Origin: Clostridiales bacterium
GTDB lineage: Bacteria; Bacillota; Clostridia; Christensenellales; UBA1242
DNA: 64,000 bases
Direction of reading: 5' to 3'
Assembly (NCBI GenBank): GCA_003522085.1
Contig: DPGI01000009.1
Span: 151,396-215,395, forward strand
Every line of letters begins with the position of its first letter. The first letter of the stretch is position 1. Below the pieces are notes generated by a model. That model saw only the letters and a program-made list of their open reading frames with translations. It ran no database searches and was not told the DNA's origin. Shown piece after piece: positions 39,942 through 49,943 of the stretch. Position numbers and translations under genes: made by a program.

Positions 39942-39955
39942 TGGCGGAGACGATG
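39942..39955 (-). repeat. partial copy of the tRNA-Ser 3' end (att-like direct repeat)
   Basis: TGGCGGAGACGATG versus TGGCGGAGACGGTG at 45794-45807. Both copies are preceded by AGGGTGCGTA (39924-39933 and 45773-45782). Confidence 0.65.
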
Positions 39956-40012
39956 CTATCCAATTCTAACTTTAAAGTCTATGTTGGTGATAGGTGGATT
40001 AAGATTTGTTGT

Positions 40013-41113
40013 TTAATCTAAAGGTGGAAATCCTGTATAACATTTTTGAGCATTGGCATGTCCTAACACTCTCCCTATTGAAGTAATAGAAAATCCATTT
40101 GGAATTTTATCCCACCAATCGTGTATAACTTTTAATGCAGGAAACGTGTCAAGTTTTTCGTAGAATTTATTTAATACAATATTTTTCTTATCTGCGACTT
40201 TATCATAGAAATCAATAACTTTATAAAGACATTCCTTTTCTTCTTGCGATAAAGGTAAAATAGTGCCATTTGATTGAATTTTATCAAGTTTGTCAATTTC
40301 CGTTGTTTTTGTCAAAGGTAGTCTTACATGATTATCTATAAGTTCGTGGTCAATGAGGATATTTTCTAATCCATAAGGTTTTAATAAATTAATTGCTTTT
40401 TGATAATTTTCAGAGTTTTTATCAATGCCCACGCAAAAATAACCATCAAGATTTTGTAAATAAAATTCTTTTAATTTCTTTAACCTACAAAATGAATTTA
40501 ATCTTATTGCCTTTAAAATATCTAATTGGTCTAACCAATCATTATTATTGGGCAAGTCGCAAATTAAAAGACTTTCAAACAATTTATTCATTACATTTAA
40601 CCCTTCGGTTATATTGCCAGTTATAGGGCATATCCCTATTAAAATTGTAGTAATAACAGTTAGAGCTACAAGGCTTTCATCTGATATTTGTTCTACAATG
40701 TCTACAGCTCCATTAATTCCAATACAGCTTGCCTTATTGTTTTGTTTTTTGTATCTATGAATAAGCAATTCTGATAAGATGTTGTAATCACTTTCTCTTG
40801 TCGTTGTAGCGGCTTGAATTTGGGCTTTTCTATATACTAATTTAAAAGCGGGGTCATTGAAGATTTCTAACGCATTCTCTATTTCTGCTAATTTTGGAAT
40901 AAATCTATTTTCAAAATCATTCATTCTTTTTTGTGCCAACTCATCTGCGTTTGAAAAATATTCTTCCATTATTTGCTTTGCAGAATACTCTGAAATTTGT
41001 TTTGCTTTCTCTTCATCAAATTGAGTAATATGATTATGTACAATAGTTAGATTTTCGCCTTGATAATTATTTGAATTTGCCCCAGAACTAATTTCTTGAT
41101 TTCTTTTTGTCAT
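40013..41113 (-). CDS. hypothetical protein (366 aa from MTKRNQ), island cargo
   Basis: The track ORF 40013..41230 is trimmed to the internal ATG preceded by a GGAGAAAAT SD. No recognisable motif. My character-level reading of the homopolymers near 41105 and 41160 disagrees with the track by compensating 1-nt shifts, so the start has an uncertainty of 1 nt. Confidence 0.6.
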   Translation of the reverse strand: MTKRNQEISSGANSNNYQGENLTIVHNHITQFDEEKAKQISEYSAKQIMEEYFSNADELAQKRMNDFENRFIPKLAEIENALEIFNDPAFKLVYRKAQIQAATTTRESDYNILSELLIHRYKKQNNKASCIGINGAVDIVEQISDESLVALTVITTILIGICPITGNITEGLNVMNKLFESLLICDLPNNNDWLDQLDILKAIRLNSFCRLKKLKEFYLQNLDGYFCVGIDKNSENYQKAINLLKPYGLENILIDHELIDNHVRLPLTKTTEIDKLDKIQSNGTILPLSQEEKECLYKVIDFYDKVADKKNIVLNKFYEKLDTFPALKVIHDWWDKIPNGFSITSIGRVLGHANAQKCYTGFPPLD

Positions 41114-41267
41114 GATTATTTTCTCCGAATTGTATATTGTTGCAATTATCTCCAGACGAAATATTTTGTTTGTTTGTCTGTTTATTATTGTAAATTGATA
41201 TTCCACCGAATATTGCAGAAATAATAGCAAATATTCCGGATATTATTGTGCAAATAATTTCAACCAT
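41088..41267 (-). CDS. small single-TM peptide (about 59 aa) overlapping the start of the downstream ORF
   Basis: MVEIICTIISGIFAIISAIFGGISIYNNKQTNKQN...; AGGAGG SD 7 nt upstream and TGgTATAAT promoter upstream. The 3' end follows the track-consistent frame. If my literal reading is right the ORF stops near 41145 instead. Confidence 0.45.
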   Translation of the reverse strand: MVEIICTIISGIFAIISAIFGGISIYNNKQTNKQNISSGDNCNNIQFGENNHDKKKSRN

Positions 41268-41498
41268 AATTACCTCCTATTTAGTGCTTAATCATTATAC
41301 CATATTTTGTAAAAAAATGAAAGGTCTATAAGAAAAAAAGAAGAAGTGTTTTTCAACTTCTTCTCGTGGGTGTTTTATTGATTGTTTTGCAAGTGAGAAT
41401 AGACATCTTTTGCTGTTAGATTTTGGATTTTGCCACTAGATTCGGCGAAGTTTTTTATGTCTGTTGCAAACATTAAACTTATTCGTTTAAGTTGCTGA

Positions 41499-41774
41499 TT
41501 TGACAAACTTGCTTGCCAAAGACTTGTTGATATGTTTTTAAATAGAGTTGTTTTGTATGATGACCACTGCGATATTTATTTCAACACAAATGATGATAAA
41601 TCTAAACATCTTAAACTTAAAGAGCAACTAGACTTAGAAAGCGAAATTTTGTTTGAAAACAAAAAGAACACCACTAGTGTTCTTGCGTACCTAAAAAAAG
41701 AGCAATCTAAACTAAAAAGTTCGGATTACTCCCTAATGGCGGGGCTAACAAAGTTCAGATTGAACTATTTTTAA
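41499..41774 (+). pseudogene. possible C-terminal remnant of a large serine recombinase
   Basis: open frame ..LVDMFLNRVVLYDDHCDIYFN.. resembles the fi.kI.vydd..ieI.F tail of large serine recombinases; no catalytic domain upstream. Confidence 0.3.
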
Positions 41775-41900
41775 TCAATGATCATTTACGATTATCGTTT
41801 ATATTAAAACAATTATAAAATATTGTTTGTAATATTTTGTCGAATATATAGAAATTATTAAAATATATGTTATAATGGTGCTATAAAGTGAGGTAAACTT

Positions 41901-44876
41901 ATGAAAAATTTATTTTTTGTTTTAAGCGATATACATATGAGAGAAGATCAATATATTGATAAAAAATATATTAATGGAATTGGAAATGTTTTGAATTCAA
42001 TAGAATGCTTAGATAATGCCTGTGTAATTGTTGCTGGCGATTTAGCTTTTTCTGGAAAGAAAAATGAATATAGAAAAGTTGGAAACTTGTTTGGGCTTAT
42101 TACTAATCAGTTAAAGAAAAAGTTAGGGAAAGAAGATATTATACCATTCTATGTTGTCCCAGGGAATCATGATATTAATTTTGATGGCAATCCTCGCGAA
42201 AGAGTAGATGTAAGAGAATTGCACAATAATGGAACTATTGATAATGAAATTGATACTGAATTAACAAAATTTGGTTCTTTTTACGAGCTTGCAGAGAGAA
42301 ATAGATGTTTTTTGCACAACAAATTGTATAATTATAGATGTTTTGGAACTGGCGAAATTAATACACAAATCAATCTACTTAACTCAGAATTGTTTTCTAC
42401 TTTTATGGATAAAAATGGAGATGATGATAAAGGATTACACTATTTCCCTGAATCAAGTATTTCCAAAATAACAAAACAAAAATGGGCAAACTATACAATA
42501 ACCGTTATGCATCGAAGCCCAGAATGGTTTTCTTGGCAATCTTCACAAAATTTAAAAAATAACTTTTACAGGGCAAGTAATATTTTAATTTGTGGGCACG
42601 AACATTCTTCAGATATTCAAGACATAGAAAAAGAACAAAAAAATCTAATTATGGTAAAGACAGGGATGTTTGATTTTCGTGAAAATAGTTATTCATTCAA
42701 TTTAATCATAATTGACACAGAAAAAAATACATGCGATATAAAATATTATACTTGGAATTCTGAAAGACAAATGTATGTTATAACAACGGAACAAAATGAT
42801 ATAGAACTTAAAGAAATTGTCGTTGATGATTTGTTAAAACCAAACATTAACTTTACAAGAGAATTCCTGACTATAAATAATTATAAAGTAGATGAACTTT
42901 TCGTTTTTCCTGACATTGATAAGATCAATAATCAGCAAGATAAAAATGAAAAAACGATAAAAAATATGGATGAACTCTTTGATTTTGTGAAAGAAAACAA
43001 CATAATATATATTGAAGGTGATGCTATGGCCGGCAAATCTTCTTTAGCAAAATCATTTTATAGTAATAGCATAAAACGAAAGAAGATTCCATTATATATT
43101 GATTTAGATCAAATCAGTAGAAAGAAATATGAAAATATTATTCGAGACGCTTTTTGTGAGCAATATAGCTATAATAGTTTAGACTATGAGAAATTTAAAC
43201 AAACATTAAAAGAAGATAAGGTTGTTATTGTTGATAATCTAGATAAGATTCCTGATAAATTAATTGATGATTTTGTGTGTAATTTAAAATGTGATTTTAA
43301 AAAAGTAATACTTTTATATAAACCTAATGATAAATGTGATATCGTTGAATTAACAAAAAAAAGTTTGAATGATAATGATAAATGTGAAAGATTGAGAATT
43401 TTGCCTTTCTACCTAAGAAAAAGAAAGGAATTGATAAAAAATGTCTTGTGTACTTCAGTAAATAAAGTGGATAATATTGATAATAAAGTTACAGAAATAA
43501 ATAATTTTATTTCAAATCAATTACAAGTTTTCAGTATCAATCCTAATTTTATTACAATGTATGTGTCATATTATGTTGATGATATACACAATGCTGATGT
43601 ACAGACTAATCTGTTTAGTAAAGTATTTGAAACAAATTTAGTTAAATCGTTACAAAAATATATAAGCAATGAAAATATAGAAGAATATTTCACTATTTAT
43701 GAGAACTTAGCATATAAGATACATTTTGAGAAAAAGTATCCAATTTCAATAAATGATATACAGAATGTTATAAAGTCATATAATGATAAATATATGCTAG
43801 AAATTGATTGTGCTGAATTCAGAAAAAATAGTATAAAAGCAAACATTCTAGATGAAATGGATAATGACACTTTTAAATTCTTTGATAATTCATATCTTGC
43901 TTATTTTGTTGCGAGTGCACTAAATAAAAAGGCAAATAATGGACAAAAAATTGATGATGAATTAAGTTGGATATGCACAAATTTGTGCTTTAATATTAAT
44001 GGAGATATATTATTGTTTTTGTCTTACATAACAAAAAATGTCTCCATTTTGGATTATATAATTAAGAGTACAAAAGAGATAATGCAACAATGGACTGAAT
44101 TTGATATTGACAATAACAATATTTCATTTTTAAAATTAAATGCTGAGGAAAAAGTTGAATTGCCAACTAGTGAAGACAAAGAAATCCATGAACAAAACAT
44201 AGAAAAACAGGAAAAAGCAATAAAGAAGAATTTAGAAATAAAAACTAGATCAATATATGATGACTATGATGAAACGAAGTTAGACTCCAAAGCATATAAA
44301 GTAAATCAAGCAATGAGACACTTGGAATTAGTAAGTAAAATTTTACCTAATTTTAATCATCTAATTGAAAAGGATAAGAAACTTGATTTGGCTCGAGGGA
44401 TATATGAATATCCTAATAAGATTTGTAATGAAATTTTACATGAAGTGGATTCGAATTTCAACTATATTTTAAAAGACTTATTGCAATATTGTGAAGAAAA
44501 TAATATTGAAAAAGGTCAAGATAAAATAATAAATCAATTGCAAATACAAGCTGAAATGTTTATATTGAATTTATTTGATATGACTGCGAGATTGTCTACT
44601 ACGACTAAAACCATTAAAGTATTAGACTCTATTGAACTAAGAAGTATTAATAATTCAATTTTAAATGTTATGATGTATGAAAATCTAGGGAACTTCAAAG
44701 AATTTGCAAAACGTGCTGACGATATTTATGACAAATCTAAAAACCCATTAGTAAAAACTATGATAAAAAGAATTGTAAGAAAGCATTTCTTATGTAACAA
44801 AGATTTAAAACAAGTAGGAGATGTTCAAAGAGTTGCGGATAAATATTTTGGACAATCTAGAAAATATTTAAAATAA
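41901..44876 (+). CDS. metallophosphoesterase / NACHT-STAND-like P-loop NTPase / helical C-terminal domain fusion protein (991 aa)
   Basis: MPE motifs SDIH (aa 9-12), GD (46-47), GNHD (88-91), H204, GHEH (232-235); Walker A GDAMAGKS (373-380); Walker B VVIVDNLD (441-448); GAGG SD and TATAAT upstream. Confidence 0.85.
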   Translation: MKNLFFVLSDIHMREDQYIDKKYINGIGNVLNSIECLDNACVIVAGDLAFSGKKNEYRKVGNLFGLITNQLKKKLGKEDIIPFYVVPGNHDINFDGNPRERVDVRELHNNGTIDNEIDTELTKFGSFYELAERNRCFLHNKLYNYRCFGTGEINTQINLLNSELFSTFMDKNGDDDKGLHYFPESSISKITKQKWANYTITVMHRSPEWFSWQSSQNLKNNFYRASNILICGHEHSSDIQDIEKEQKNLIMVKTGMFDFRENSYSFNLIIIDTEKNTCDIKYYTWNSERQMYVITTEQNDIELKEIVVDDLLKPNINFTREFLTINNYKVDELFVFPDIDKINNQQDKNEKTIKNMDELFDFVKENNIIYIEGDAMAGKSSLAKSFYSNSIKRKKIPLYIDLDQISRKKYENIIRDAFCEQYSYNSLDYEKFKQTLKEDKVVIVDNLDKIPDKLIDDFVCNLKCDFKKVILLYKPNDKCDIVELTKKSLNDNDKCERLRILPFYLRKRKELIKNVLCTSVNKVDNIDNKVTEINNFISNQLQVFSINPNFITMYVSYYVDDIHNADVQTNLFSKVFETNLVKSLQKYISNENIEEYFTIYENLAYKIHFEKKYPISINDIQNVIKSYNDKYMLEIDCAEFRKNSIKANILDEMDNDTFKFFDNSYLAYFVASALNKKANNGQKIDDELSWICTNLCFNINGDILLFLSYITKNVSILDYIIKSTKEIMQQWTEFDIDNNNISFLKLNAEEKVELPTSEDKEIHEQNIEKQEKAIKKNLEIKTRSIYDDYDETKLDSKAYKVNQAMRHLELVSKILPNFNHLIEKDKKLDLARGIYEYPNKICNEILHEVDSNFNYILKDLLQYCEENNIEKGQDKIINQLQIQAEMFILNLFDMTARLSTTTKTIKVLDSIELRSINNSILNVMMYENLGNFKEFAKRADDIYDKSKNPLVKTMIKRIVRKHFLCNKDLKQVGDVQRVADKYFGQSRKYLK

Positions 44877-44979
44877 AAAGCAGGCCTGTCGTTTTATCAT
44901 ATAAGATAACGACATAACTCATATGATAGTATGTTAACCTGCCTAATATAGCATATTCATTTACATGAAAATTATGTTA

Positions 44980-45009
44980 AAAGCGAACAATTTTTTGTTC
45001 GCTTTTTTG
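44980..45009 (+). terminator. terminator after the 991-aa gene
   Basis: agcgaacaa/ttgttcgct hairpin followed by T6. Confidence 0.75.
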
Positions 45010-45019
45010 TTTAAAAAAT

Positions 45020-45720
45020 AAAAACCACCAGCTGTGCTGGTGAGAAATGAAAAGCTTAAGCTATGCGTAGACAAAAAATTCCTCCTAAATAAAAATAGTG
45101 TTTGCTGACACGAAAATTAATAATGGGGGGGGATTTTTTGTTTATGAACGAAAATAGTATAGCACATACAAAATGGAATAGCAAATACCATATAGTATTC
45201 ACACCAAAGTATAGAAGAAAAGCAATATACGGAGAATTAAAAAAAGAGATAGGAGCAATATTAAGAGAATTAAGTAATTGGAAAGAAGTAGAAATAATAG
45301 AAGCACACGGATGTGTAGAGCACATACATATGTATGTATCAATACCACCAAAAATGTCAGTTGCCGGTTATGTGGGGTTTCTAAAAGGGAAAAGTACATT
45401 AATAATATATGAAAGGCATTCAAACCTAAAATATAAATACAGCAACAAGCATTTTTGGTGTAGGGGTTACTATGTGGATACAGTAGGAAGAAATGAAAAG
45501 GCAATAGAGGAATATGTAAGGAATCAAGAGAAAGAAGATATTATGAGTGACCAAATAAGTATGAAAGAATACTTAGACCCATTTAAAAAAATTTCTCGTT
45601 ACACACAATGGGTGTGTTATGGGGATTATATAATTGTCTTGTAAAAATCTTTCTCGTTTGACAAAATGGTGATAAAGTGAGATGGATTTTCAATCTTTGG
45701 TTTTTCAAAAGGAATAATTG
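45020..45720 (+). mobile_element. IS200/IS605-family insertion sequence (boundaries approximate)
   Basis: contains tnpA; subterminal hairpin caccagc-tgt-gctggtg at 45026-45042. The right end was not defined. Confidence 0.6.
45144..45644 (+). CDS. tnpA: IS200/IS605-family Y1 transposase TnpA
   Basis: HTKWNSKYHIVFTPKYRRK, HUH motif EHIHMYVSIPPK, catalytic Tyr region GYYVDTVG. Confidence 0.92.
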   Translation: MNENSIAHTKWNSKYHIVFTPKYRRKAIYGELKKEIGAILRELSNWKEVEIIEAHGCVEHIHMYVSIPPKMSVAGYVGFLKGKSTLIIYERHSNLKYKYSNKHFWCRGYYVDTVGRNEKAIEEYVRNQEKEDIMSDQISMKEYLDPFKKISRYTQWVCYGDYIIVL

Positions 45721-45742
45721 CACCAAAACATTCATGTAAAAT

Positions 45743-45785
45743 AAAAAACTGCACGCATTTCTCATTTTCACGAGGGTGCGTACAG
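45743..45785 (-). terminator. terminator downstream of tRNA-Ser
   Basis: minus strand ctgtacgc...gcgtgcag hairpin followed by T6. Confidence 0.6.
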
Positions 45786-45793
45786 TTCTCTAC

Positions 45794-45886
45794 TGGCGGA
45801 GACGGTGGGATTCGAACCCACGTGCCCGGGTTAGCGGACAACTTGATTTCGAGTCAAGCTCGGTGCGACCACTTCGATACGTCTCC
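45794..45886 (-). tRNA. tRNA-Ser (anticodon CGA), CCA encoded
   Basis: manual cloverleaf: acceptor GGAGACG/CGTCTCC, 3-bp D stem, anticodon stem CTTGA/TCAAG with loop CTCGAAA, long variable arm, T arm GTGGG-TTCGAAT-CCCAC, GCCA end. Confidence 0.9.
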
Positions 45887-45904
45887 TTGTTTGCTTCATC
45901 CGCT

Positions 45905-45933
45905 ATTTTATCACGCATCATTTTTTTTTGCAA
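45905..45933 (-). promoter_or_regulatory. promoter of tRNA-Ser
   Basis: minus strand TTGCAA, 17 nt, TGaTAAAAT, about 18 nt before the mature 5' end. Confidence 0.55.
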
Positions 45934-46183
45934 CTCTTCTGATTAATTATTTTTTTCACATTAACCTAACAGTAAATAGCTAAAGCAAAGCTTGCATTAC
46001 TCCCGATATTAAATGCGGAGTGAAAACAAAATGCAACATATATTGTGATGTTGTTTTGTTCGTTTCACTCACAAATCTATTTGCCTGCTGCAAATAGGTT
46101 GCAAGCAACACCATCACAATATGTATTATCATCAGTTGCTGGCAAGTATCCCTACGGGCTGTTTGCCGACAACTTCCGATAAT

Positions 46184-46339
46184 ATAAGCGAAGCGAAAAC
46201 AAGAAGAAAAAGCAAAGCTTGCGTTACAACGTAACATAAGCGAAGCGAAAACAAGAAGTAGTAACAAAGCTTGTATGGCTACGCAACATAAAGCGAAGAG
46301 AGAAACGCTGAAAAACATAAAGAAGGGAGGAAGAAACAG
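46184..46339 (+). repeat. 52-nt-period tandem repeat (3 units starting at 46184, 46236 and 46288)
   Basis: perfect 23-nt core ATAAGCGAAGCGAAAACAAGAAG at 46184 and 46236; a degenerate third unit, ATAAAGCGAAGAGAGAAACG, starts exactly where the 83-nt inverted repeat begins. Confidence 0.75.
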
Positions 46340-46370
46340 GGCGAGGGCCCGAAAAACGGAGGTTTCTTAT
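46288..46370 (+). repeat. 83-nt leader, left arm of a perfect inverted repeat
   Basis: identical to the reverse complement of 47290-47372 (checked base by base); contains a GGAGG SD. Confidence 0.9.
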
Positions 46371-46371
46371 A

Positions 46372-46728
46372 ATGAAAATGCTTAATTTTATATCTATGTT
46401 GGGTAATGCATGGGAAAAAGCCCTAAAAAATAAGGAAGGCAAGACATATGCGGGTTATGAATGGCTGGTTGACCTTTTTAAATATCTTAGCCCAATTTTA
46501 TACGCAATCTTAGCAGTAGTTGGTGCGGCTGGTGTGATTTACTCAATTGTTCTGGGTGTTAACCTTGCAAAAGCGGAAGACCAGTCAAAACGTGACGAAG
46601 CAAAGAAAAGATTAATTACAACAATTATTGCCGTAGCTGTTACAGTAGTGCTGATCATTTTCTTTAACGAACTGCTTCCTCTTATTGTAGGTGCAGTTGC
46701 TAAACCTGGCGATATACCTGGAGCTTAA
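46372..46728 (+). CDS. small two-TM membrane protein, paralog A (pilin/VirB2-like topology, tentative)
   Basis: 118 aa. The core ILYAILAVVGAAGVIYSIVLGVNLAKAEDQSKRDEAKKRLITTIIAVAVTVVLIIFFNEL is shared with paralog B; the N- and C-terminal parts diverge. Confidence 0.75.
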   Translation: MKMLNFISMLGNAWEKALKNKEGKTYAGYEWLVDLFKYLSPILYAILAVVGAAGVIYSIVLGVNLAKAEDQSKRDEAKKRLITTIIAVAVTVVLIIFFNELLPLIVGAVAKPGDIPGA

Positions 46729-46742
46729 TTAAAATATAAACA

Positions 46743-46796
46743 AAATAAATCTCTAAAAAATTAATTAATAAATTAAAATTTTTTAGAGATTTATTT
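46743..46796. terminator. 20-bp perfect hairpin between the convergent paralogs
   Basis: aaataaatctctaaaaaatt / aattttttagagatttattt with a 14-nt loop. Confidence 0.7.
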
Positions 46797-46876
46797 TATT
46801 AAATGTCGAAATTTGAGAAACGTCTTTCCTAAGAATTGATAGGAAAAATGAATTGCATTTAATAAGTCACGCGCGC

Positions 46877-46909
46877 AAAAAAACGACCCGTTCGGGTCGT
46901 CTATTTTTT
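46877..46909. terminator. bidirectional terminator
   Basis: acgacccg-tt-cgggtcgt hairpin flanked by A7 and T6. Confidence 0.75.
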
Positions 46910-46922
46910 ATATGTTAAATTA

Positions 46923-47291
46923 TTACATATGGATGAAGCCGGTATTTTTATGATTTGGTAAATTACCACTATTGTTACCGCCGACAGCTTTGATGATCAT
47001 AGGGAATAATTCATTGAAGAAAATAATCAAAACAACAGTAACAGCAACTGCAATAATTGTTGTAATCAATCTTTTCTTTGCTTCGTCACGTTTTGATTGG
47101 TCTTCCGCTTTTGCAAGGTTAACACCCAGAACAATTGAGTAAATCACACCAGCGGCTCCAACTACAGCCATGATAGCGTAAAGGATAGGTCCAAGATATT
47201 CATATACTTGTGCAACCCAGTGTAAATCAGATTCGGCTGGGAAATTTGTGTTCCAATCATAACCTAACATCGAAGAAATAAAATTTAACAT
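46923..47291 (-). CDS. small two-TM membrane protein, paralog B
   Basis: 122 aa. It has the same core as paralog A. The central ~115 nt are nearly identical at the DNA level, whereas the flanks differ. Confidence 0.75.
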   Translation of the reverse strand: MLNFISSMLGYDWNTNFPAESDLHWVAQVYEYLGPILYAIMAVVGAAGVIYSIVLGVNLAKAEDQSKRDEAKKRLITTIIAVAVTVVLIIFFNELFPMIIKAVGGNNSGNLPNHKNTGFIHM

Positions 47292-47372
47292 AAGAAACCT
47301 CCGTTTTTCGGGCCCTCGCCCTGTTTCTTCCTCCCTTCTTTATGTTTTTCAGCGTTTCTCTCTTCGCTTTAT
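47290..47372 (-). repeat. 83-nt leader, right arm of the perfect inverted repeat
   Basis: reverse complement of 46288-46370. Confidence 0.9.
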
Positions 47373-47571
47373 ATTAAAAAAGGTTGAAAGTTTTTTTGTT
47401 TTAATTAAATTAAAACTTTTAAATAATATTTGTAAAAAATAACTTTCTATGCGAACTATTTATTTACAAGATAATAGTAGCATAAAAAAATTTTTATGTA
47501 AAATGATTTTACATATTTTTTTAAAAATTTTTAAAAAATTTTATTTTTCTTTTTTTACCTATTTTTTCCGC

Positions 47572-47600
47572 ACAAAAAAAGCGACATTTTATGCCGCTTA
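47572..47600 (-). terminator. terminator after the rubrerythrin gene
   Basis: minus strand aagcggcat-aaa-atgtcgctt followed by T7. Confidence 0.65.
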
Positions 47601-47605
47601 ATTTT

Positions 47606-48193
47606 TTATTGATTTTCAAAGTTGATTATTACATAGCCTTGCGGATAGTTGCACAGGGGGCAAGTTTTCCAGGCTTCTTTTTTGGTTTCACGGTGGCCGC
47701 AGTTTGAACATTCATACAGGCGAGGCGTTTGCGATTTGTATAATTTGTGATGATTAAACATTTCGCCGAGATCGGCAAGTTTTTGCGCGTGAACTTTTTC
47801 TACTTCTGCAACCAGTGTAAATGTTTTGGCAATTTCGGGGAAGCCTTCGTCTTTTGCGACTTTTGCAAATGCGGGGTAGATGTTTTGGGCTTCATAGTCT
47901 TCGATTACTGCTGCCGCGGCGAGAGATGTTTTAAGTTCGGACTGCTTGAACGGATAGCCGGCTTCGATGTTTACATTTCCGTTTTTAGTTTGCAAATTGT
48001 CGACAAGATGTTGATAGAACATTTTGGCGTGCGCCATTTCGTTTTTAGCAAGCATTTTTAAAATTGTAGAAATGTAATTCATTTGGTTTTGCTTTGCATC
48101 TTTTGCGATAAACTGATAGCGGGCTCCGTCTTGACACTCTGCGGCGAAGGCGCGGGCTAAATTTTCTTTTGTTTTACTTTCTGAAAAATCCAT
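47606..48193 (-). CDS. rbr: rubrerythrin
   Basis: ferritin-like diiron domain (ENLARAFAAECQDGARY, EMAHAKMF) plus a C-terminal rubredoxin-like CSNCGH...CPLC; GGAGGA SD before the ATG at 48193. Confidence 0.9.
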   Translation of the reverse strand: MDFSESKTKENLARAFAAECQDGARYQFIAKDAKQNQMNYISTILKMLAKNEMAHAKMFYQHLVDNLQTKNGNVNIEAGYPFKQSELKTSLAAAAVIEDYEAQNIYPAFAKVAKDEGFPEIAKTFTLVAEVEKVHAQKLADLGEMFNHHKLYKSQTPRLYECSNCGHRETKKEAWKTCPLCNYPQGYVIINFENQ

Positions 48194-48294
48194 GGTTTTT
48201 TCCTCCAGAAAATATATTGACATAAATTAACTATTTAAACATTTGCATTTTTGTTTTAAAAAATGTAAAATATTCTTATATATAAGGAGTTGTT

Positions 48295-49068
48295 ATGGCA
48301 AACGAATATACGCCTATTAAAATTCACTATGATATGATTCGCGACAACGAAGCTCAGGTTGTGGACAAACTCGACCGTGAACTCAAGTTTTATCGCATTC
48401 TTTTTCAGAAAAAAATAAAGGGTTTGGAAATTATTTACGATACTCCAAACTGCTTGCTTTCTGGAGCGGGGATTGTTCTTAGCAAACAATACGACGACGG
48501 AAAGGCATTTTTTAAGGTTAGACGTATCTCATATCTTCCTACCGAATTCAGAAAGCCAAGTCAAAAATTTTACCTTTCACAAACAAACAATCGCGAAACC
48601 CCAAAGGATTTTCCTTTGCAAATCGCTACTGCAATCAACAATGCGTTTTCAAATGTTTTCACTATTGACCTTGTTGAAGTTGTTAAGCAGACTATGCCAA
48701 GATATGAAATAAAACTAAAAGGCAATTTGTATTCATTGACAAGCGGACTTGGAATGAAAGGGCAGATTGTTTTTGAAAAAGTTGTTTACAAAGACTGCGC
48801 CAATGGAAGAAAGGTTAAGCATCAAAGCGTAACCGTTACTTTGCCTGGTGACCCTGCTTATAAGCGTGAAGTTGAAGAAGTGCAAAACGCGATTGAGAAA
48901 AGCTGCAAAGAGCTTTTGAGATATAATGAAAGCCGATTTGAAATTGCACAACGCATTTTGAGAGTTAGAACTCCTATGACCAAGGAAGAGCGTAAGGCTG
49001 CCGAAGAAAAGGAGAGAAAACGCAAAGAGATGCTTGAAGAAGAAGCACAAAACGAAGAGAATAAATAA
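48295..49068 (+). CDS. hypothetical protein with a K/E-rich C-terminal tail
   Basis: 257 aa, AAGGAG SD; no motif recognised. Confidence 0.6.
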   Translation: MANEYTPIKIHYDMIRDNEAQVVDKLDRELKFYRILFQKKIKGLEIIYDTPNCLLSGAGIVLSKQYDDGKAFFKVRRISYLPTEFRKPSQKFYLSQTNNRETPKDFPLQIATAINNAFSNVFTIDLVEVVKQTMPRYEIKLKGNLYSLTSGLGMKGQIVFEKVVYKDCANGRKVKHQSVTVTLPGDPAYKREVEEVQNAIEKSCKELLRYNESRFEIAQRILRVRTPMTKEERKAAEEKERKRKEMLEEEAQNEENK

Positions 49069-49244: not shown

Positions 49245-49421
49245 TTAAAAAAGTCTGCCGGAACAGCCGGAGCAAGTGTTTGCACAACTTGAAAAACCGC
49301 TATTGTTTGAGAGAGCAAGCAGCAAAAGAAGCAGGAAATTGGTGTTTGTGTTCAAGTTTGTGTCGGTTGCATTTGAAAAAATTGAAAGCAACAGCACCAG
49401 CAAAATATCTTGAGAATTCAT
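49245..49421 (-). CDS. small hydrophobic Cys-tailed peptide (58 aa)
   Basis: MNSQDILLVLLLSIFSNATDTNLNTNTNFLLLLLLALSNNSGFSSCANTCSGCSGRLF; AAGGAGG SD 4 nt upstream; divergent from the ArsR-family gene; below the track size cutoff. Confidence 0.4.
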   Translation of the reverse strand: MNSQDILLVLLLSIFSNATDTNLNTNTNFLLLLLLALSNNSGFSSCANTCSGCSGRLF

Positions 49422-49610
49422 ATAACCTCCTTTTCAACAATAAAATAAAAAAATCAGCAAAAAAAGTGGAACAAATCCAAATTACTAATTTGCCTTTCTT
49501 CTTTAGTGCGATAAAATATCTCTAAATGTTTGTCGAGTGAGTTTGACAGCATTTAGCATATCAATTTATATGATTTTGCGGCAAAGTGTGATACAAAAAA
49601 GGAGATAAAA

Positions 49611-49943
49611 TTGGGGGATTATTTAGTTCTTTCAGAAAGACGGAAAAGTGAAATACTTGGGTTTTTGCCAACAGACCCGCAGATTAACAAGCTTGCGGAC
49701 TATTTTCAAAACTTTTCGGACTTTACACGGCTTAAAATTATTTCATGTTTATCTGTTTGCGACATGTGCGTTGGAGATATTTCAAACTTGTTGGATATCA
49801 ATCAAACAACTGTTTCGCATCAACTTAAAATCTTGAAGGATCAAGGGCTGGTGAGTTATAAAAGAGATGGAAAAATTTTGCTTTACACGCTTTTAGATAA
49901 ATCGGTCAGTGACGTTATGATGTATGCGGTGGAGTATTTGTGA
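49611..49943 (+). CDS. ArsR/SmtB-family metalloregulator
   Basis: 110 aa; wHTH ISNLLDINQTTVSHQLKILKDQGLV; Cys cluster CLSVCDMCVGD at the position of the ELCVCDL metal site; TTG start after an AAGGAG SD. Confidence 0.85.
   Translation: MGDYLVLSERRKSEILGFLPTDPQINKLADYFQNFSDFTRLKIISCLSVCDMCVGDISNLLDINQTTVSHQLKILKDQGLVSYKRDGKILLYTLLDKSVSDVMMYAVEYL

Follow-up and report, generated by a model that had tools for sequence, protein, structure and literature searches.

Two convergent VirB2-like pilin genes in a gut Clostridia bacterium form a cassette that is probably reshuffled by homology-driven inversion

A pair of convergent pilin-like genes, here called gene A and gene B, lies together with two nested pairs of inverted repeats in a 64,000-nt stretch of DNA (the window; contig DPGI01000009.1, positions 151,396 to 215,395) from an uncultured gut Clostridia bacterium, whose genome is 875 kb in size and 99% complete. 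The logic of this cassette combines features of several known systems: inversion of pilin parts, homology-driven exchange between paralogs, and the use of an expression site. In Moraxella bovis and Moraxella lacunata, the Piv recombinase acts on short sites at tfpQ/tfpI, where promoter and N-terminus stay fixed while only the C-terminal parts are turned around. The locus resembles Moraxella in having two opposed alternative pilin sequences, of which inversion would pick one for an expression site, and in having exchange within shared sequence. The pilin is a type IV pilin (T4P) in Moraxella, whereas it is VirB2-like here. Furthermore, both genes are complete here and each has its own leader, the repeats form two nested pairs, and no invertase gene was found. 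The preliminary description of the window had suggested a Moraxella-pilin-like switch, an analogy that fails at the level of mechanism. In Campylobacter fetus, RecA-dependent inversion between the conserved 5' regions of the sap S-layer genes moves opposed paralogs relative to one promoter. Homology-driven inversion of opposed paralogs is the feature that our locus would share with sap, as is the way in which nested inversions give several combinations. However, the sap promoter is inside the segment, between divergent genes, and about 600 bp of homology is available, whereas here the genes in the segment are convergent, the putative promoter is outside of it, and the homology amounts to 86 nt plus about 200 nt. 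The tufA and tufB genes of Salmonella enterica are also inverted paralogs that are kept alike by gene conversion, with an occasional inversion between them. They are far apart, have a housekeeping function and show no selected variability, while the recombining blocks of the present locus bracket hypervariable modules. In the shufflon of plasmid R64, Rci acts on 19-bp sfx sites and serves one expressed gene (pilV) of the type IV thin pilus. The likeness lies in the exchange, by inversion, of alternative C-terminal tails of a conjugation-linked pilus protein; the difference lies in the site-specific action of Rci and in the single expressed gene of the shufflon. The vsa locus of Mycoplasma pulmonis combines a single expression site with promoter-less copies (PMC4534519), but it likewise differs by its use of a site-specific recombinase.

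The intragenic invertons of gut bacteria are short, are contained within one gene and are presumed to depend on an invertase (PMC10028968). As in those elements, inversion of coding sequence would recode part of a protein in a gut bacterium, but here two genes swap their tails by way of a long repeat that consists of coding sequence. The locus has neither an adjacent or known global invertase nor the short shared sites of an invertase-type inverton. Pilin variation in Neisseria is RecA-dependent and uses one expression site, pilE, together with promoter-less pilS copies, and it has been proposed that Mycoplasma retains recA in its reduced genome for antigenic variation (PMC4534519). Conversion from pilS to pilE is one-way and draws on many silent partial copies, whereas two full genes would be exchanged reciprocally here. 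Pilins of the same family were described in Patescibacteria, where the chromosomal Type IV Secretion System (T4SS) has arrays of VirB2-like (PF18895/PF04956) pilin genes next to virB4; these arrays are tandem and old, their mean identity is 25%, no inversion was described in them, and their variation was proposed to serve host interaction (2025 preprint, 10.1101/2025.01.22.634366). The present locus resembles these arrays in Pfam family, in the presence of several divergent paralogs, in the very small genome and in the chromosomal VirB4.

Our analysis indicates that the locus is probably a two-gene cassette of alternative PF18895 pilins for a chromosomal T4SS-like apparatus and that homology-driven inversion reshuffles it. 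Gene A (allele class A1) occupies positions 46372-46728 of the plus strand and encodes 118 aa, comprising a variable N-terminus, a first transmembrane helix (TM1), an invariant charged loop, a second transmembrane helix (TM2) and a variable tail. Gene B (allele class B) is an open reading frame (ORF) of 122 aa at 46923-47291 on the minus strand. The outer repeat is formed by the leaders of these genes. Positions 46288-46370 and 47290-47372 are exact reverse complements over 83 of 83 nt, and a repeat finder extends the pair to 86 nt, with a left arm at 46285-46370 (plus strand), a right arm at 47290-47375 (minus strand) and a single mismatch at 46287. Each arm is a proximal 5' untranslated region and contains a GGAGG Shine-Dalgarno (SD) sequence 6-9 nt 5' of the ATG. 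The repeat ends at the start codon or, in some alleles, about 16-19 nt beyond it. The leader folds no better than shuffled sequence (z = -0.97), and Rfam matched nothing but the tRNA when searched with the leader and its flanks. The inner repeat lies within the genes and is made of the coding core TM1-loop-TM2. Its left arm (46481-46685, plus strand, in gene A) and right arm (46996-47200, minus strand, in gene B) are 205 nt long and 86% identical. They include a tract, at 46528-46631 in gene A, in which only 2 of 104 nt are mismatched and the identical runs are 56, 29 and 17 nt long, while the coding sequence on either side of it has many synonymous differences. The genes are separated by a turnaround (46739-46900) with an AT-rich palindrome at 46739-46800 and a GC hairpin at 46883-46900 that has A/T runs on both sides; these could be terminators for either gene. 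The preliminary description had reported the perfect 83-nt repeat with its GGAGG, both convergent genes, and a near-identical core with two differences and diverged synonymous flanks, all of which we confirm. Its estimate of about 115 nt for the core was slightly generous, and its view that the N-termini are unrelated was overstated, as MLNFIS..LG..W...W is common to both and the proteins are 68% identical overall.

The proposed model follows this layout, in which two tail-to-tail genes are bracketed by nested pairs of inverted repeats. A crossover in the leader arms would turn the entire 1-kb cassette around between its flanks. One in the core arms would turn the inner part alone, and each gene would receive the C-terminal tail of the other. 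Where no crossover results, gene conversion would keep the arms identical. Combined with allele exchange between strains, recombination of these kinds would reshuffle the variable N-terminal and C-terminal segments.

Inversion of the whole cassette is seen in public contigs, which were sampled because they encode the exact proteins or contain the leader. Each contig was typed by the allele class that adjoins the tRNA-Ser flank (L, marker 45790-45990) or the rubrerythrin flank (R, 47400-47900). With flanks that are 98-99.6% identical, the contigs can be assigned to a single species. Their pilin alleles form sharply distinct classes (A1, A2, A4 and A5 versus B, C1, C2 and C3), and nearly all pairings occur. 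Among contigs that contain both flanks, 11 have the orientation of the window (L-A ... B/C-R), and the inverted orientation is found in L108, in L118 and in 6 places similar to L118 that include contigs longer than 200 kb. Among contigs with one flank, 17 have the orientation of the window and 7 are inverted (L035, L036, L065, L070, L094, L122 and L123). The inverted contigs represent at least three allele backgrounds. Contig L118 (17.8 kb, coverage 5) reads L flank, inverted repeat (IR), C3 ... A5, IR', R flank, and the 226-kb scaffold L119 has the same allele pair in the orientation of the window. A block of 1112 nt that includes both arms is 99.55% identical between the two and reversed, while the flanks are collinear. 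This is a clean inversion with breakpoints inside the arms. L108, a MEGAHIT k141 contig, reads R, IR, A1 ... C2', IR', L, and the sequence at its far end corresponds to the L flank of L028. Our claim of inversion rests on contigs such as L118 and L108 that hold all four junctions with both flanks, and the short contigs are used as supporting evidence only. The inversion across the leader arms that was predicted from the window is therefore found in both-flank contigs of both orientations.

Exchange at the inner repeat is seen in mosaic alleles. Over the left flank and up to a point in the core, contig L062 has exactly the sequence of the A1 side of L078. After 25 nt that the two genes share, its sequence becomes that of the C2 C-terminus, followed by the spacer downstream of C2 and then by the reverse complement of the C-terminus of A1. 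This is the structure that would be expected from inversion of the inner segment by a crossover in the core repeat, and the crossover maps to the region of the left core arm. The mosaic protein of L062 is present in two other assemblies as well. Other mosaics join a B N-terminus to an A1 tail (P0005/L115), a class-A N-terminus to a C2 tail (P0033) and an A4 N-terminus to an A2 tail (P0020). Chimeric alleles were thus found when strains were compared (L062, L115 and P0033), in line with the preliminary description. The leader arms evolve in concert. Haplotype H1 is that of the window and of most strains, while L028 has H2, which departs from H1 at about 13 positions, and the sister species G010 has H3, which departs from it at about 9. 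Within each genome both arms carry the same haplotype, while the haplotype differs between genomes. In L063, one arm has an outer part of H1 and an inner part of H2 and faces a pure H2 arm. The identity of the arms within genomes and the mosaic arm of L063 indicate that the arms keep exchanging sequence. The concerted arms and the conversion tracts also bear out the earlier suggestion of recombination between the two copies.

The two flanks of the cassette are not equivalent. A sigma-70-like promoter with an extended -10 is predicted in the R flank on the minus strand (TTTACA at 47502-47497, a spacing of 17 nt, and TGnTACTAT, with the -10 ending at 47474). The palindrome at 47495-47515, which had been noted from the window, overlaps its -35. 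A second conserved block, TTTTTTACAAATATTA, is at 47424-47439. The predicted promoter region (47424-47515) was delimited by a promoter scan and by conservation, as the promoter block and TTTTTTACAAATATTA are conserved 5' of a pilin gene in four species of the genus (G000, G006, G022 and G014). The conserved promoter block is present in the R flank only, and the scan found no sigma-70-like promoter directed at the cassette on the L flank. A hexamer that resembles a -10 element (TAATAT, TAACAT or CAACAT) and marks the outer limit of the repeat was rejected as a promoter because neither flank offers a -35 at a suitable distance from it. Since the conserved pilin promoter is in the R flank only, a flip would probably decide which paralog is placed at the main expression site. 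We tentatively propose that the R position is the expression site, with the L position weakly expressed or silent; the balance is slightly against so specific an assignment. The L-side copy of the sister species G006, which is frameshifted, agrees with expression from the R flank. The promoter argument is purely computational, and the L flank could hold a promoter that the scan does not recognize; both points weigh against the proposal. The frameshift in G006 (L004:2040-2400, the tRNA-side pilin copy) falls after about 24 codons, and it represents either a pseudogene or an error in the metagenome-assembled genome.

The alternative that survives best is neutral rearrangement, in which an old inverted duplication of an essential pilin gene is co-expressed, each copy from its own promoter, and mosaics are tolerated by-products. 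In more distant species of the genus the paralogs are arranged in tandem, a hint that both are needed together, and all strains seen of the present species have two intact genes with the same SD. The tufA/tufB pair of Salmonella converts and inverts without any switch function. However, nearly all combinations of highly divergent N-terminal and C-terminal alleles are found on flanks that are 98-99.6% identical, which is the pattern of diversifying selection acting on the exposed ends, and the restriction of the conserved promoter block to one flank does not fit two copies with promoters of their own. Nor does G006, in which the leaders have diverged so that no leader repeat is left and the L-side gene has lost its frame. 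Neutral rearrangement is therefore an unlikely account, though it stands ahead of the other alternatives.

Profile and gene neighborhood assign the two proteins to the VirB2-like pilins. Pfam family PF18895 (T4SS_pilin, VirB2-like) matches gene A with 27.5 bits and gene B with 30.2 bits at a gathering cut-off of 26.6, and most homologs in a database of 5.8 billion proteins carry this family. In an alignment of 30 sequences of the genus, the loop LA[KR]AEDQSKRDEAKK is invariant between two conserved hydrophobic helices, and the hypervariable regions are residues ~10-35 and the C-terminal tail. The AlphaFold2 model of the gene B product is a helical hairpin (H24-61 and H65-104) with a mean predicted local distance difference test (pLDDT) score of 77. 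Hairpin, charged loop and variable termini are the layout of VirB2 and TraA. By analogy with these pilins, the variable termini may be exposed on the outside of the filament, with the invariant loop facing the lumen. The genome holds just two copies of the pilin family. It also encodes two T4SS ATPases, namely a VirB4-like protein of 907 aa with N-terminal membrane helices and a P-loop_TraG match of 64.6 bits (C9:63086-65809; L087) and, on a third contig, a VirD4-like coupling protein (C5:51647-53248; L099; 672-aa ORF, PF02534 143 bits). All 25 genomes searched in the genus have the VirB4-like gene, and 23 of them have the pilin family (22 of the 24 others when this genome is left aside). In G031 (C5) and G002 (C1) a pilin homolog is located about 2 kb upstream of the virB4-like gene. 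The assignment to VirB2-type pilins, tentative in the preliminary description, is now on firmer ground, with PF18895 above its cut-off, VirB4-like and VirD4-like genes in the genome, and this proximity in G031 and G002.

The proteins might instead be small two-helix membrane proteins of another kind (holin-like, immunity or membrane-anchor proteins) whose match to PF18895 is compositional. Several results lean toward this view and against a pilin. The Pfam scores are just 1-4 bits above the cut-off. Foldseek searches of the PDB returned generic helical hairpins only, with a best E of 0.31, and a profile search of PDB sequences gave nothing below E = 0.18 and thus no relative of solved structure. 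The pilin genes are not adjacent to virB4 or virD4 in this genome, and T4SS classes of Gram-positive bacteria are stated to lack VirB2 homologs (10.1101/2025.01.22.634366), while the host here belongs to the Clostridia. A compositional match is nevertheless hard to reconcile with the predominance of PF18895 among database homologs, with the homologs that lie close to virB4-like genes, with the distribution of both families over the genus and with the fit to the VirB2 and TraA layout, and we consider it improbable. A search of PHROGs gave no significant match for the proteins. T4SS-like parts are scattered over contigs of the 875-kb genome. No relaxase has been found so far in the lineage, in which no search was aimed at relaxases. 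The VirB4-like gene is followed directly by an ORF of 3374 aa with a lipoprotein-like N-terminus and then by rpoB and rpoC (to C9:75956); this ORF could be a giant surface protein that partners a T4SS-like motor.

As to the mechanism of exchange, homology-driven (RecA-type) recombination is likeliest and a dedicated invertase is not indicated, because the genome has no serine recombinase gene, no invertase gene is adjacent and a recA gene is present (C4:225764-226546). The dependence on RecA is our inference. Against it, recombination is usually inefficient when the homology is as short as 86 nt. The competing explanation is programmed phase variation by a site-specific recombinase, dedicated or global, that cuts defined sites within the repeats. 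One intact, full-length tyrosine recombinase gene is present (G000:C4:127781-128326), along with one fragment, both on contigs other than that of the cassette. Such an enzyme would resemble RecV of Clostridioides difficile and Mpi of Bacteroides fragilis, which act on distant switches. The leader repeat has a sharp outer boundary that is preserved from strain to strain, and inverted forms are common, as programmed switching would have it. On the other hand, the lone recombinase of an 875-kb genome is most simply the Xer enzyme, and no recombinase is consistently adjacent to the locus in other strains, where only integrases of the strain-variable island were found. Exchange takes place in two unrelated repeats, the leader and the core, and a recombinase site common to both pairs was rejected since they share no word of 8 nt or more. 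These repeats (86 and about 205 nt) are far longer than the short defined sites of site-specific invertons. Exchange points vary between cases, and both the conversion boundary in L063 and the crossover in L062 are at arbitrary points of identity. We consider programmed inversion by a recombinase improbable. The IS200-type TnpA (45102-45644) was also discarded as the agent of exchange, since the strain-specific island to which it belongs is lacking in other strains that have the same cassette.

Homology-driven inversion, the preferred reading, has further to be weighed against the ways in which assemblies can mislead. An inverted repeat longer than k (the k-mer length) collapses in a de Bruijn graph. 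Where coverage is low and a junction is missing, the middle segment of one-flank contigs can be threaded either way. Contig L035 was downgraded as strong evidence of inversion because it has L-flank sequence at both ends, the pattern of a hairpin traversal of the assembly graph. Contig L066 was withdrawn as an inverted case, since B, A2 and C alleles all share the 16 nt that it has beyond the repeat. The core of (A1,B) strains has identical runs of at least 56 nt, so that mosaics of the L115 type could be products of assembly, and some database mosaics come from contigs of very low coverage. The orientation data, which derive from public assemblies, represent polymorphism between samples. Each of these points counts against our reading. 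L109 and L110, which end exactly at the repeat boundary, were not accepted as mixed orientations, as such ends are expected whenever k is shorter than the repeat. An A1-N/C2-C mosaic located 60 nt upstream of an MnmA-like gene (L089:1-2734, coverage 1.9) was set aside because the rest of the contig does not match the genome; it is probably a chimeric contig, with gene transfer as the alternative. Even so, that all inverted and mosaic contigs are wrong paths through collapsed repeats and that the locus is fixed in the orientation of the window is highly improbable: many inverted contigs are indeed short, with 1-3x coverage and one flank, but L118 with its similar places and L108 span all four junctions, a unitig cannot cross the 86-nt repeat at a shorter k when all four junctions are present, identical core runs in the (A1,C2) background of L062 reach 27 nt at most, below the usual final k values, in a mosaic recovered from three assemblies, and the concerted evolution of the arms is independent of orientation calls. 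Short-read assemblies leave the orientation of the locus ambiguous and should be used with care. Public human-gut metagenomes already contain the cassette in both orientations as well as the mosaics, which makes the case directly testable.

If a homology-driven pilin cassette is the correct reading, two genes with two nested repeats are enough for combinatorial surface variation in a minimal genome, and no dedicated recombinase is apparently involved. The genus, with genomes of 0.8-1.3 Mb, keeps VirB2-type pilins together with core VirB4-like and VirD4-like genes, which suggests a pilus-based lifestyle of the kind proposed for ultrasmall Patescibacteria. The selective agent may be phage, a partner cell or host immunity. 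A broader proposal would be that this lineage of gut Clostridia depends on a chromosomal T4SS-derived pilus whose pilin ends are diversified by two-level shuffling through RecA alone, a proposal that we regard as doubtful. If it were true, the lineage would parallel epibiotic Patescibacteria, and a minimal genome would escape phages or adapt to partner cells without a large archive of silent copies.

The L marker is a tRNA-Ser(CGA) gene on the minus strand (45794-45886; ARAGORN, Rfam), beyond which is a variable defense island. Between this tRNA and the cassette is the left flank (45980-46283), which consists of a structured stretch followed by the 52-nt tandem repeats (46180-46283, 81% identity) that the preliminary description had placed there. 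The 52-nt unit resembles the outer end of the leader and its copy number differs among strains. No further copies of either the leader or the 52-nt unit exist anywhere in the 875-kb genome. The structured stretch (45980-46180) folds far better than shuffled sequence (z = -4.5). It has matches of 16-18 nt to G000:C9:88654-88730, with 77-79% identity over 77 nt in other strains, and it is missing from the L flank in some strains. The left flank varies among strains: that of L036 has a deletion of 227 nt, and L066 also lacks most of the stretch 45980-46283. Region 45980-46180 may be a small mobile or structured element.

Beyond the tRNA-Ser gene the cargo differs by strain (39942-45886 compared with L028, L031, L076 and L107). 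A metallophosphoesterase-STAND gene and the IS200 TnpA are found here, and other strains have a large serine recombinase with methylases, an SMC/AAA gene, DUF3800 or DUF4062. This region is a defense-island hot spot that directly adjoins the pilin cassette. On the other side, the R marker is the rubrerythrin gene with its terminator (47579-48223, minus strand). Next to it is a gene for a conserved protein of 257 aa (48295-49068) that has no Pfam match and is located at the R side of the cassette in every strain. Farther out (49245-49943; L004:507-1181) are a gene for a 58-aa leucine-rich peptide with a cysteine-rich tail and a divergent gene for an ArsR-type regulator. This pair still adjoins the pilin locus in G006, where the rubrerythrin gene and the gene for the 257-aa protein are absent.

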